Origin: Eledone cirrhosa
Taxonomy: Eukaryota
Reading direction: 5' to 3'
Length of the DNA: 64,000 nt
Assembly (NCBI GenBank): GCA_964016885.1
Contig: OZ024753.1
Coordinates: 34,844,001-34,908,000, forward strand
Under the pieces are notes generated by a model. It ran no database searches, had not been told where the DNA came from, and saw only the letters and a program-made list of their open reading frames with translations. A program made the position numbers and the translations under genes. Shown piece by piece: positions 1-60,408 of this stretch (position 1 is the first letter of the stretch; every line of letters begins with the position of its first letter).

Positions 1-94
1 ACAAACTTCACAAGGAAGACATTATTAAAAGATTGTCAACATATTTTAGTTTGATGTAAGGAATGTAGAGAATAATAATAATAATATTAATAAT

Positions 95-285
95 AATTGT
101 TTCTACTTTTGGCACAAGGCCAGCAACTACCCAGTGTATTACTGATACTTTATTTTATCGACCCCGTAAGGATGAAAGGCAAAGTTAACCTTGGCGGGAT
201 TTGAACTCAGAATGGCAAGGGCAGTAACTCTATGCGTCAAAGCATGGCGTCCGACCCTCTACCGATACTGCCAATCCCCCGCCTT
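95..285 (-). mobile_element. tRNA-derived SINE family A (~190 bp)
   Basis: Minus strand reads GATTGGCAGTATCGGTAGAG...GAGTTCAAATCCCGCC (A/B-box-like), CCTTTCATCCTTACGGGGTCGATAAAAT core, GTAGAAACAATT end; many copies in the window. Confidence 0.8.
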
Positions 286-320
286 TAATATTATTAATAA
301 TATTAATAATAATAATGTCC

Positions 321-440
321 GTTTACAATTGTTTCGCCACTCCATATAATATTTCTGGATCAGATGACTATATATCATAATTGATCTGGTTCAGTTGAAA
401 ATAATTAACATATTTAAAAAACAGAGTGGCTCATCGGAAC
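321..440 (-). ncRNA. Hammerhead ribozyme motif (core mutated to CCGATGA)
   Basis: GTT-CCGATGA-GCCACTC...GAGTGGC-GAAA-CAATTG-TA-AAC. Confidence 0.6.
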
Positions 441-573
441 TTCAAAGGAATAGAAATTAAAATAATGGGATAATGTTACATAATATAATGTCCCATATAT
501 TGGTTTTTACTATGGTGTCTTGGTTGCATCAGTTATCCCATTATCCCATTATTTTAATTTATATTCCTTTGAA

Positions 574-693
574 GTTCTGATGAGCCACTCTGTTTTTTAA
601 ATATGTTAATTATTTTCAACTGAACCAGATCAATTATGATATATAGTCATCTGATCCAGAAATATTATATGGAGTAGCGAAACAATTGTAAAC
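574..693 (+). ncRNA. Minimal type-I hammerhead ribozyme with ~80-nt stem II insertion
   Basis: GTT-CTGATGA(577-583)-GCCACTC...GAGTAGC-GAAA-CAATTG-TA-AAC; palindromic stem III ACAATTGT, GUA site. Confidence 0.7.
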
Positions 694-864
694 GGACATT
701 ATTATTATTAATATTATTATTATTATTCTCTACATTCCTCACATCAAACTAAAATATGTTGACAATCTTTTAATAATGTCTTCCTTATGAAGTTTGTGGT
801 CTTGTTTTGCTTAACTAATGAATATATATATATATATATATATATATATGTTAGGGTTAGGGTA

Positions 865-1474
865 TGTCAGGTCACCAGTTGGTGCTACTGGTAACATGTA
901 TCCCAGTACAACCTGTCTCATGGTCGGGTCATTGGCGACTAAACTGGCAACCCCACCAAGGTATCTTGGTGAGGAGGGTGACTTTGGACATCCTGCAGGA
1001 CTAAAAACAAAACCTGTCAAAGGGCAAAGGAGCTCTTAAGAGTCAATGGCCATCCAAAATCACCGGGAGAGATGACCCCTTAGCCTTTGTCAAGGCAGAA
1101 TTCTAGGAGAAGGAAAACTCTGATATAACACCTGCAACCCTGATGGTATCCAATGATGTTGACTTGTTCTTCTTTTTGGTAAATATCATCTTGGTTAAGA
1201 GAGTGGGACTGGCTTTGTGCAGTGCCTTTGCTCACTATAAAAGCTTCACGGCACAGGCATTGCTTTATATCTGGAGATCTCTCTGCACTTGTCGTCACAT
1301 GGTACCATGGGCCCAGCACTATGTGTCAATAATTGTCACAAGTGTAGTGTTTGTACCAGAGTTTTCAAGTCGCTGGCTGGACTAAAAAGTCACACTCGTT
1401 CAGCGCATCGGTAGGGGTTCTCCTACATGGATATAAAGTAGTGGCCGTACTTGAAAACGAGTTGGCAGCCACCA
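865..1474 (+). mobile_element. 610-bp non-coding retroposon family D, copy 1
   Basis: Near-identical reverse complement at 41276-41885 and truncated copy at 59771-59943; in TA-rich sites; contains CTAGGAGAAGGAAAACTCTGA, reminiscent of RTE 5' UTRs. Confidence 0.75.
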
Positions 1475-1490
1475 TATGTATATATATATA

Positions 1491-2050
1491 TAACAAAGTG
1501 CAGGGCAATAAAGATAGACGGTAGCCACGGAGTAGGCAGACCCAGAAAAACCTGGGACGACATGATAAATTCCGACCTCACACGCTTACACCTCTCCAAG
1601 ACAATGTCACTGGACCGAGACCTTTGGTGGTACTCAGTAATAGAGAAGACCCGCCTTACCTAAATACAAAGTAAAACCTACTACAGTCAGTAGGCATCTC
1701 TAACAAAACACACCCCCGTCCCACCACCCCCACCCCATCCACACCGCCCCTTTCAATGTAAAGTTATGTTGGTGCTACAACATCCAGGCCGAAACAAATG
1801 AGATCGTGTAGGTGTCATGACAAAAAACACACAGTCCATGCTGTAATGTGGCCGTGTAGGCAACACGGTAAAAACCTCCCAGCCCCACACTGTAAATGTG
1901 GTTGGTGTTAGGAAGGGCATCCAGCTGTAGAAAATCCGCCAGACAGTCCTATGCGAGCAAGACAATCACTCTTGCCTCAAGTGGGAAAACCCCCGTCCAA
2001 ACCCATGCAAGCGTGGAACACGGACGTTAAACGTTGATGATGATGATGAT
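1491..2050 (+). mobile_element. RTE-clade LINE 3' end (5'-truncated)
   Basis: GRPRKTWDD...DRDLW C-terminal RTE motif, 3' UTR, (GAT)n tail; copies at 47316 and 59097. Confidence 0.8.
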
Positions 2051-2463
2051 ATATATATATATATATATGTATATATATATGTATATATATATATATATGT
2101 ATATATATGTATATATATATATATATATATATATATATATGTATATATATATATATATATATATATATATATATATATATGTATAGTAATAATAATAAAA
2201 TTGAAGACTAAAATCCAAAGAGGGCTCGATAAGGAAAATATATAACAATACATTGCTTAAACTTTAATCTGTTATTTTAATAAATATATATATATGTATA
2301 TATATATATGTATATATATATACTATGCTAGGGAAAGGATCAGGGGTGTATAACACTCCACTTATCCAGCAGGCAGTATGAGGTTAGCTCAATGTCTGAG
2401 GACAGAGCCATAATATAATAAATAAATAACAAAGAACGCTTATAGCATATGCATATCTTTACT

Positions 2464-2509
2464 TGCTAACATTGTTTCATCCACACTATAAGTGGGACTC
2501 ATCAGAGCA
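2464..2509 (-). ncRNA. Minimal hammerhead ribozyme
   Basis: TGCT-CTGATGA-GTCCCACTTATAGTGTGGAT-GAAA-CAATG-TT-AGCA. Confidence 0.75.
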
Positions 2510-58096: not shown

Positions 58097-58224
58097 GGAA
58101 AAAGTATGACCCCGACGGCATAGCTCAAGCCGTTTCGACGGCTATTTCCCATTCTACTACCCTAAGTATTGAGTACTCTGGTGTGTTATGGTCAATCTGG
58201 TTCCTTACCACATTTCCTTTGTTA
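58097..58224. mobile_element. PLE-like 3' remnant with 5' inversion (family of 9010/59511)
   Basis: 58097-58145 inverted relative to 59710-59760; tail near-identical to 59561-59638. Confidence 0.65.
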
Positions 58225-58699
58225 TATATATATATATATATATATATATATGAGCAAGACGATGAGTAAGACAAAGTCACCCGACCTGTTACTGCCCACG
58301 GCAGGACAACCTGTCTAACCCATGCTAGCGTGGAAGAATGGACGTAAAACGGTGATGATGATAATGATGATATATATATATATATGTATATATATATATA
58401 GAAAGAGAGAGAGAAAGAGAGAGGCTGTATATATGTGTGTGTATCTTGTGTGTTTGTGAAAGAGAAAACTAGACTCTATATTTATGTGTATGTCTGTGTG
58501 TGAGAAAGAGAGACAGACGGTTTGACAGAGTTGCATGTAGATGCACAATTTGTGTGTGTGCATGTGTGAATGTGCATGTGTGAATGTGCATGTGTGAATG
58601 TGCATGTGTGAATGTGCATGTGTGTAAAGAACAAAGCCAAACAAACAATTGCAAAGACAGAACTAGGCCACACAAAAGTTATCAATACCCCATGAGTAG

Positions 58700-58840
58700 A
58701 GTGGTGTGGTGTGGTGTGGTGTGGTGTGGTGTGGTGCGGTGTGGTGCGGTGCGGTGTGGTGTGGTGTGGTGCTGTGCGGTGTGGTGTGGTACAGTGTGGT
58801 ATGGTGCGGTGTGGTGTGGTGCGGTGCGGTGTGGTGGTGA
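58700..58840. repeat. (GTGTG/GTGCG)n pentanucleotide repeat
   Basis: Direct inspection. Confidence 0.9.
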
Positions 58841-59096
58841 ACTGTAGTGTAGTAAGATATAGAGAAGAGGTAACACAGGTAATAGATACAAACATAGATG
58901 GGTTGAGAAACTAAAGATAGACAACAATATGGCTGACAAGAAAATCTAGGTTGCTAAGTATATAAACTTTTCCTCTTGTTAGCCATGTCCACCGAATAGA
59001 TTTTGTCATATGTTTCTCTGCCACACAGCCTTGCTCAACTACATAGAACACATACAATGACACACTTAAGAAATCTATATCTAAATATATATATGC

Positions 59097-59510
59097 AAGG
59101 CTACGTTGGTATGGTCACGTGATGCGCATGAAGGACGATAGCTGTATAACAAAGTGCAGGGCAATAAAGATAGACGGTAGCCACGGAATAGGCAGACCCA
59201 GAAAAACCTGGGACGAGCTGATAAACTCCGACCTCACACACTTACACCTCACCAAGACAATGTCACTGGACCGAGACCTTTAGCGGTACTCAGTAATAGA
59301 GAAGACCCGCCTTACCTAAATACAAAGTAAAACCTACTACAGTCAGTAGGCATCTCTAACAAAATACACCCCCGTCCCACCACCCCCACCCCATCCACAC
59401 CGCCCCCTTATATGTAAAGTTATGTTGGTGCCACACCATCCAGGCCGAAACAAATGAGATCGTGTAGGTGTCACGACAAAAAAACACACAGTCCACGCTG
59501 TAATGTGGCT
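59097..59510 (+). mobile_element. RTE LINE 3' fragment (family of 1491/47316)
   Basis: Near-identical sequence; in-frame stop at ~59281. Confidence 0.8.
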
Positions 59511-59760
59511 AATTCTGGACTAGTCCAGCTCAGCCGTCGGAGTCCTACTCGTTCCTATTACCCATTCTACTACCCTAAGTATTGAGTACTTTGGTGCGTT
59601 ATGGTCCACCTGGTTCCTTACCACATTTCCTTCGTTATATATATATATATGTGTGTGTGTGTGTGTGTGTGTAGATATAAATGCACACACATTCTGGACT
59701 AGTCCAGAATTAGCCGTCGAAACGGCTTGAGCTCAGCCGTCGAGGTCTTACTTGTTCCTA
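59511..59760 (+). mobile_element. Two PLE-like 3' remnants with a partial hammerhead
   Basis: GAAA-CGGCT-TGAGCTC-AGCCG-TC (5-bp stem III, GUC site); palindromic ATTCTGGACTAGTCCAGAAT. Confidence 0.6.
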
Positions 59761-59770
59761 TATATATATA

Positions 59771-59943
59771 TGGTGGCTGCCAACTCACCTTCGAGTACGG
59801 CCACTACTTTATATCCATGTAGGAGAACCCCTACCGATGCGCTGAACGAGTGTGACTTTTTAGTCTAGCCAGCGACTTGAAAACTCTGGTACAAACACTA
59901 CACTTGTGACAATTATTGACACATAGTGCTGGGCCCATGGTAC
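59771..59943 (-). mobile_element. Family D retroposon, 5'-truncated copy 3
   Basis: Matches 41276-~41448. Confidence 0.8.
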
Positions 59944-59944
59944 A

Positions 59945-60087
59945 TATCTATCTATCTAAGGCGGGTAAAATTCCCAAGATCCATGGACGAGTTCTCTCCA
60001 GCGGTCTCTGTCCCTCATTATCGCTGCCATGTCCTGCATCTCCAACAGACCAGTGTCTGTCCTTAGGGCATCAACATACGTTAACCT
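59945..60087 (-). mobile_element. RTE-like LINE 3' tip (family of 56580)
   Basis: Near-identical to 56580-56717. Confidence 0.75.
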
Positions 60088-60216
60088 GATGGTACATATA
60101 TACATACATATATATAAACAGACTCAGAGATACATACACACAGCCTCAGAGATATACACACACACACACACATATATATATATATGCATATATATATATA
60201 CATATGTGTGTGTGTG

Positions 60217-60408
60217 AGTCTGGGGTTATATCGGGGGTAACCATAATAAGTAAGGTACTCAATACATTAGTAGAGTGTATACAAAAAATTTAATATAGAA
60301 ATGGCTTCTATAGGACTAGAACTGTTTCATTGAAAGGAAATCATGATGGTTTCCTTCTAATGAAACAGTTCTAGTCTTGTAGAAGCCATTTCTATATTAA
60401 ATTTGTTA
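60217..60408. mobile_element. Short palindromic PLE-like remnant (GAAA-stem III-GTC only) with tail on the left
   Basis: Arms ~60285-60340 / ~60349-60403; tail has ACTC-TAC/GTA-TT-GAGT hairpin on minus. Confidence 0.6.

Follow-up and report, generated by a model that had tools for sequence, protein, structure and literature searches.

In a 64,000-nucleotide (nt) stretch of the genome of Eledone cirrhosa (contig OZ024753.1, positions 34,844,001 to 34,908,000; hereafter the window, numbered from its first base), minimal type I hammerhead motifs are set in (TA)n tracts. Sixteen such motifs, listed in a preliminary description of the window, fall by our own grouping into eight families (F1 to F5, FA, F7 and F8). 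Fourteen of them, comprising six of the families, are the pseudo-long terminal repeat (pLTR) ends of Penelope-like elements (PLEs) with reverse transcriptase (RT) and GIY-YIG endonuclease (EN) open reading frames (ORFs) in the same genome. We consider it very probable that each motif is the hammerhead of the pLTR of an endonuclease-positive PLE, and that the palindromes are 5′-truncated insertions joined head to head in (TA)n. The assembly comprises 3.0 Gb and the GC content of the window is 34%.

The link to coding elements was established by searching each paired family against the genome and fetching longer loci around the matches. Units with the arrangement pLTR-ORF-pLTR and a length of 3.3-5.1 kb were recovered for F2 (loci L236 and L237), F5 (L171 and L172), F7 (L189) and F8 (L221 and L222), and a partial-tandem unit of the same arrangement was found in L078 for FG, a family represented in the window by a seventeenth motif. 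For F1 and FA, full pLTR-ORF-pLTR units were not recovered among the fetched loci; copies of these families follow EN and RT ORFs that are carried by the arms of long inverted pairs. An ORF in which RT is followed by GIY-YIG lies upstream of the hammerhead in F1, F2, F5, FA, F7, F8 and FG, and six window copies match the parent pLTRs at 94-99.5%, with three divergent copies at 78-84%. The preliminary description ascribed no coding capacity to the motifs, which is true of the stumps as such, but the stumps are the ends of coding elements, and the seventeenth motif at 43935, absent from the earlier list, is located ~260 nt behind a GIY-YIG ORF (44196-44738). Weighing against the assignment to PLEs, F3 and F4, with two of the 16 motifs, have no ORF link in local BLAST searches covering 0.9 Mb of fetched loci, and the proteins of five families have no Pfam hit, their PLE status coming from motifs and from a lead in the Atlas. 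Relatives of F3 and F4 in the fetched loci display the same head-to-head form and no ORF.

The linked proteins of F1, F2, FA, F7 and F8 are 33-69% identical and all five contain a CxCX5C linker, with DKT present in F2, FA, F7 and F8, and RW in F2, F7 and F8; the N-termini of the F1 and FA proteins are incomplete. Placed by motif rather than by tree, these five families appear to be Hydra-clade PLEs. F5 and FG exhibit a CX2-5CxxC linker together with GIY-YIG, and F5 additionally DKG and a GLKF motif, so that both, placed by motif only, appear Neptune-like. Pfam RVT_1 and GIY-YIG are matched by the proteins of one of the seven families (F5). The Atlas positions the F8 protein near HTH_animal and GIY-YIG clusters (0.97-0.98), which we regard as a lead only, and sequence searches of the PDB with the F8 and F5 proteins returned nothing meaningful. 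FG has open frames of up to 1217 residues with a long Asn-rich insert (L078:1346-4996) and, with 150 scored copies at 98-100% protein identity, is a very young family. In F5, a separate upstream ORF overlaps the RT-EN ORF by ~90 nt (L171:3538-3628 on the minus strand; also in L172 and L173). The overlap contains a U UUU UUA heptamer in three of three copies, which we take to be a possible -1 frameshift site; no stable structure is predicted downstream of it.

At the level of the motifs, the arrangement CUGANGA...GAAA...NUH is present at all 16 listed coordinates, whereas a strict type I descriptor (stem I of at least 4, stem II of at least 3 and stem III of at least 2 bp) is passed by nine of them and a relaxed setting by ten (adding 574). 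The strict scan of the window yielded ten hits in total, the tenth of which (33728-33855) lies outside the earlier list and looks like a chance match. By comparison, 200 dinucleotide shuffles of the window gave a mean of 0.02-0.12 hits and a maximum of two, and the reversed window gave none. The abundance of hammerhead cores reported in the preliminary description, and its expectation of a hit density above that of shuffled sequence, are therefore borne out by arrangement and by control, but only the nine motifs conform strictly. The six that fail both settings show one deviation each, namely CCGAUGA in the core (321), GGAA in place of GAAA (42534), a stem I mismatch (40355), a stem I out of register (5380) and a U.U at the base of stem II (9259 and 9386, both F5). 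CCGAUGA, which recurs in 13 of 14 F1 copies, is the norm of the F1 family, a normal core variant fixed in a young family, and a U.U at the stem II base is common among the published Hydra PLE hammerheads (PMC8557442 supplement). Our eight families agree with the earlier estimate of about eight, but their stems are not unrelated as had been stated, since four families have stems I and III in common and five are connected by the protein identities given above.

Covariance-based annotation detects little of this, as Rfam at the gathering score gave no match in the window and an E-value scan of the whole window gave 348 matches, the 150 listed among them including no hammerhead and being of microsatellite-driven microRNA (miRNA) type; the best Rfam hammerhead score was 14.8 bits versus 48.5. 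Together with the Pfam result, this agrees with the earlier expectation that protein-based annotation would miss these elements.

The window copies differ in how much of the element they retain. The F1 head-to-head pLTR pair (1..820; hammerheads 321-440 minus and 574-693 plus) is 98.6% identical to the 3′ pLTR behind the EN ORF in L061, and its left arm begins just before the window and carries a short interspersed nuclear element (SINE) at 97-287. The F2 head-to-head pair (2324..4022; hammerheads 2464-2509 minus and 3932-3977 plus) comprises 3′ untranslated region (UTR) and pLTR, with a tail on the left arm only; L236 and L237 hold full pLTR-ORF-pLTR units of this family, 5.1 kb in length. 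Solo-pLTR palindromes are represented by F5 (9142..9590; hammerheads 9259-9297 and 9386-9424), in which both arms begin at the modal 5′ site considered below (plus arm at 9347) and whose family includes the 4.2-kb two-ORF elements of L171 and L172 with RVT_1 and GIY-YIG; by FA (28446..28856; hammerheads 28491-28543 and 28656-28708), in which the plus arm begins at the modal site 28600 and carries the tail, and whose family members in L075 and L076 bear RT and EN ORFs on their arms; and by F7 (40212..40636; hammerheads 40355-40417 and 40531-40593), with the tail on the left arm and the full-length unit in L189. A palindrome of an FA-related subfamily (53666..53992; hammerheads 53710-53775 and 53787-53851) is 80% identical to the FA pLTR.

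Two copies belong to F8. In a divergent subfamily copy (42493..42816), 78% identical to the F8 pLTR of L225, hammerhead 42534-42603 on the minus strand, with its GGAA, faces a 3′ half with tail; the second copy (46834..47186, plus strand; hammerhead 47084-47154) is preceded by an inverted tail fragment and is 84% identical to L225, full-length units being present in L221-L225. FG is represented by a 5′-truncated, apparently Neptune-like PLE on the minus strand (43684..44846) that contains the GIY-YIG ORF and the core at 43935, together with an inverted 3′ end and tail (44724-44846) that encode the N-terminus of the ORF. Indeed, the 1217-residue ORF of L078 matches in tblastn at 99% at 44717-44199 and, for residues 9-34, at 96% at 44769-44846. 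The single copies without ORF link, both on the minus strand, are F3 (5332..5482; hammerhead 5380-5464 with stem I out of register), which meets a SINE on its 5′ side and has relatives of 75-78% identity in three loci, one of them an inverted pair, and F4 (5808..5957; hammerhead 5852-5931), with a relative of 90% identity that forms a head-to-head pair in L087.

The predominance of inverted pairs noted in the preliminary description holds, as six head-to-head pairs account for 12 of the 16 motifs; opposite 42534 and 47084 only part of an inverted arm is present, and 5380 and 5852 are single. With respect to the (TA)n setting, 23 element ends were examined, of which 20 border (TA)n, two do so weakly and one borders a SINE. 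Mere proximity means little because 44% of non-satellite positions lie within 150 nt of (TA)4+. That PLE-type minimal hammerheads are abundant was also correctly anticipated, with 5,562 exact genome matches to a 31-base F5 motif and 24,036 to a 23-base F8 motif (reversed controls, 0). Among the first 100 places listed for each family, pairs within 6 kb comprise 22 head-to-head, no tail-to-tail and three same-strand pairs for F5, and 32, three and four, respectively, for F8; the head-to-head spacing ranges from 85 to 5,107 nt, and same-strand pairs are 2.2-4.4 kb apart only. In the fetched loci taken together, among which pairs are over-represented, 51 head-to-head pairs and two same-strand pairs are closer than 1 kb. 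The flanks of selected loci contain 13 further strict hits in 311 kb (reversed, 0; ten shuffles, 0-1), and although these flanks are a biased sample, they suggest ~10^5 motifs genome-wide.

Could such arms be fold-back artefacts of sequencing or assembly? Identical arms do occur in some pairs (0 differences in F2 and F5 of the window), and no contig from the public runs spans a whole reference. This is an exceedingly improbable explanation, however, for arms that are asymmetric, with the tail on one arm, a SINE (97-287) on one arm of F1, and up to 12-14 substitutions between the arms of many pairs; moreover, the ends abut (TA)n and the same form has been published for PLEs, including a Repbase entry for a PLE with a hammerhead on each strand (PMC8557442 supplement). 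The two arms of a palindrome are usually less divergent than random pairs (0.019 versus 0.058 for F5, 0.013 versus 0.058 for F8, 0.014 versus 0.021 for FA and 0.034 versus 0.036 for F7), and pairs whose differences fall mainly at shared alleles are few (L135, 7 of 8; L227, 6 of 9). This comparison fits neither one nor two RNA templates per palindrome clearly.

The 3′ ends of each family form two classes, one short and one with a tail, and in full-length copies of F2, F5, F7, F8 and FG the tail continues into the ORF start. The 5′ ends are variable, reaching over 1.4 kb. Junction sequences differ among palindromes of the same size class, which argues that the palindromes are built at each insertion. 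Self-propagation of the short palindromes, as non-autonomous units of a retrozyme-like or PLE-dependent SINE-like kind, is very unlikely: modal sizes recur (a spacing of 106 in 5 of 22 F5 pairs; 222-245 in 12 of 32 F8 pairs) in families of very high copy number, action of pLTRs in trans is known (PMC3846280), animal retrozymes have been argued to derive from PLE pLTRs (10.64898/2026.07.22.740005) and F3 and F4 have no ORF link, but, besides the differing junctions, the solo-pLTR form has no upstream TATA, the palindromes carry the subfamily variants of the full-length elements, and there are neither head-to-tail arrays in the fetched loci nor, in the 200 listed places, any same-strand pair closer than 2.2 kb.

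An identity with the retrozymes that lack long terminal repeats (non-LTR retrozymes) was considered and rejected, as there are no short same-strand tandem units and six of the eight families run into PLE 3′ UTR and ORF. Because retrozymes are defined by short head-to-tail units, and retrozyme-type head-to-tail arrays were not found in the window, the fetched loci or the 200 listed F5 and F8 places, the elements do not qualify as retrozymes. The separate radiation of non-autonomous, retrozyme-like elements envisaged in the preliminary description thus gives way, for six of its eight families, to pLTR fragments of RT-endonuclease PLEs.

Each of the four adequately sampled families has a single site, located 44-80 nt upstream of its core, at which 5′ ends accumulate. 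A margin of 2 nt around the mode takes in 11 of 33 ends in F5, 11 of 30 in F8, 11 of 46 in F7 and 14 of 42 in FA, with the mode at -44, -69, -80 and -64, respectively, relative to the core C, and each of these families has one 5′ end in the 58 nt upstream of the mode. All four modal bases are an A after a pyrimidine, and a TATA is located at -31 in F5 and at -30 in most FA copies, the FA reference copy having a variant. Non-palindromic copies also stop at the modal site, and a third to half of copies run through it. Sampling for F5 and F8 followed genome order. For the contigs of four public runs whose kind is not recorded, the summed depth on the FA reference rises stepwise at the bin containing the mode, a weak sign, and loose contig ends at the FA short 3′ end run into (TA)n; these contigs provided no usable fold-back joints.

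On balance we lean towards the modal 5′ base being the transcription start in the upstream pLTR, and, by a narrower leaning, we suggest that the commonest short insertion is a run-off copy of the 5′ pLTR of the transcript, extending from priming site to start, with two such copies joined head to head. Several observations weigh against both suggestions. For FA and F7, the copies sampled were those that scored best against a query beginning near the mode, and the modes were chosen after the data had been seen. No clear TATA is present upstream of the F7 or F8 mode, and a test for cap-derived G was not significant, 14 of 61 truncated copies having a G just ahead of the modal base versus a background of 16% (p = 0.12). 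No pile-up is apparent in F2 (38 copies) or F1 (14 copies), where the samples are biased against short copies, and the contig depth is no copy number and may reflect upstream subfamily divergence or the assembly's own sample.

The pile-up might instead mark an RT pause, or a preferred site of fold-back or template switching in the 3′ pLTR, rather than an RNA 5′ end. The lack of significant cap-G excess, the lack of a clear TATA in two of the four families and the copies that run through the site are all compatible with this, and palindromes at pLTR 5′ ends have been attributed to self-priming, with an antisense template (PMC3846280). We nevertheless hold it to be possible rather than probable, given the one-sided edge in four families, on pyrimidine-A, the TATA at canonical distance in two of them and the non-palindromic copies that stop there too; in any case it touches the pile-up only and leaves the PLE identity unaffected. 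A literature search, beyond whose reach lay most subscription journals and Repbase, found no description of a fixed 5′ site. Several families have a splice-donor-like GGTATG downstream of the modal 5′ site and upstream of the hammerhead (FA 28638, F2 3912, F7 about 40493), a stretch in which Penelope of D. virilis has an intron (PMC2377424).

The RT-EN ORF linkage, the fixed paired 3′ ends, the variable junctions and the 5′ pile-up observed here can be accommodated in a scheme in which the GIY-YIG endonuclease of the element would nick (TA)n and the RT, starting at either of two internal sites at the pLTR end, would copy the RNA to give the short end or the end with tail. Copying would usually halt early, and two copies would be joined head to head, in a manner that we infer, such that every insertion creates its own palindrome centre; copies of the most frequent short class would begin at the fixed position (44-80 nt upstream of the core) presumed to be the RNA 5′ end. 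Nicking of both strands and internal priming have been described for a PLE (PMC11167929), Penelope transcription starts inside the upstream pLTR (PMC2377424), and a TATA with a TCACT initiator has been proposed for a rotifer pLTR (PMC3846280). The hammerhead would act, if at all, probably in the tandem pLTR-ORF-pLTR transcript of the parent and not in the palindrome.

The two cores of a palindrome are on opposite strands, and the read-through RNA is predicted to fold as one long hairpin (-220.9 kcal/mol, z = -39.6), which together make self-cleavage from palindromes unlikely in this model, whereas production of hairpin RNA is plausible. Minimal hammerheads are thought to need a dimer (PMC4209133), which by our analysis the palindrome cores would be unable to form, and related motifs are described as cleaving weakly or needing protein. 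Of ten isolated motifs, one (47084) folds clearly better than shuffles. Among 19 distinct F8 motifs, in rows selected on a fixed 3′ half, a two-sided change occurs in one of 26 pairs and one-sided pair-keeping changes in 11. That the motifs are ribozymes or hairpins selected by the host to control a gene around them is, in our view, highly unlikely: the hammerhead density of the window is ~3x that of the flanks of other loci (nine genuine strict hits in 64 kb versus 13 in 311 kb, the flanks being those of selected loci and a biased sample), but, besides the folding result for isolated motifs, the hairpin buries the ribozyme, several cores are damaged and the copies are young, six being 94-99.5% identical to full-length elements. 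Furthermore, no host exon was found in the window, where none of 44 candidate ORFs matches Pfam (44 of 48 listed, the remaining four lying within a LINE fragment); the designation of this DNA as intronic was likewise not confirmed.

Other repeats account for additional parts of the window, 64% of which matches other fetched loci or a satellite. A further head-to-head palindrome at 4682-5018 and a single copy at 54700-54870 derive from a decayed hammerhead-bearing family, absent from the earlier list, with intact-core relatives in L115 and L128. Minimal-type CUGANGA-N-stem-GAAA cores at 33855 (plus) and 54299 (minus) have no relatives in the fetched loci. A 129-nt palindrome at 60278-60414 lies at the end of a repeat that BLAST matched 38 times across 441 kb of loci, and no hammerhead core was found in it. 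Mixed 36- and 43-nt units form a 10.3-kb satellite at 15070-25376, and 3′ fragments of non-LTR retrotransposons (zf-RVT; RVT_1 with C2H2 fingers) are located at 7913-8674, 13785-14102 and 45208-46364.

This genome abounds in PLEs of at least five young Hydra-type and two Neptune-like families. The interest lies in the abundance of several young Hydra-type families and in the fixed 5′ site; the kind of element was already known. Since these elements are missed by the Rfam thresholds and mostly by Pfam, PLE debris may be misfiled as miniature inverted-repeat transposable elements, miRNA hairpins or unknown repeats. The formation of PLE tandem and inverted structures is called unresolved in PMC8557442, and the fixed 5′ site with two fixed 3′ sites offers a sharp prediction for it. 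If the run-off reading is true, tens of thousands of copies in the genome would record where PLE transcription and priming begin, the formation of PLE inverted repeats would become testable from sequence, and about 10^4-10^5 near-perfect hairpins of 100-800 bp would be present as potential substrates of A-to-I editing or of small-RNA pathways. Read-through transcription, if it occurs, would make the palindromes a large source of long double-stranded RNA.

Compared with known systems, the elements resemble non-LTR retrozymes (PMC7229834; 10.64898/2026.07.22.740005) in their type I hammerhead, size of a few hundred bases, AT-richness and relation to PLEs. However, retrozymes are described there as head-to-tail, with same-strand ribozymes and circular RNA, in contrast to the head-to-head, opposite-strand and PLE-ORF-continuous copies seen here. 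With Poseidon of Anolis (PAc; PMC11167929) they share two internal RT start sites, an optional tail that overlaps the ORF start, into which it also runs in vitro as in the families here, and AT-rich targets, whereas the accessible text of that source does not address an inverted joint or a 5′ stop site. The minimal hammerheads of metazoan PLEs (PMC4209133) likewise have a short stem I and a self-complementary stem III, occur singly or in twos, the latter on opposite strands and separated by 100-700 bp, and number thousands per genome with few inside full PLEs, most being ascribed to truncated PLEs; the single-family count is higher here (24,036), and a fixed 5′ site is not mentioned in the accessible part of that work.

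The similarity of F5 and FG to Neptune-type PLEs extends to the CX2-5CxxC linker with GIY-YIG and, for F5, to DKG and GLKF, but the separate overlapping upstream ORF of F5 and the long Asn-rich insert of FG are distinct. In Octopus vulgaris, 31 recently active Penelope-like families have been reported (PMC13282606), the word 'ribozyme' being absent from the accessible text. The closest correspondence is with the Hydra clade, for which PMC8557442 describes an RWK-like motif, DKT, a CxCX5C linker without CCHH, (TA)n insertion and pLTR hammerheads, as well as an inverted 5′-truncated copy and a tail. The families here share the C-terminal GIY-YIG, RW(K/R/I/T), DKT, CxCX5C, the pLTR hammerhead, the (TA)n targets and the inverted 5′-truncated copy. 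They differ in their longer stems II, in units of 3.3-5.1 kb with long 3′ UTRs, compared with generally under 3 kb in PMC8557442, and in number, with five families in this one genome as opposed to a single cephalopod Hydra-clade family in the supplementary list of that study, which includes Hydra-1_Obim and Penelope-13_HM.

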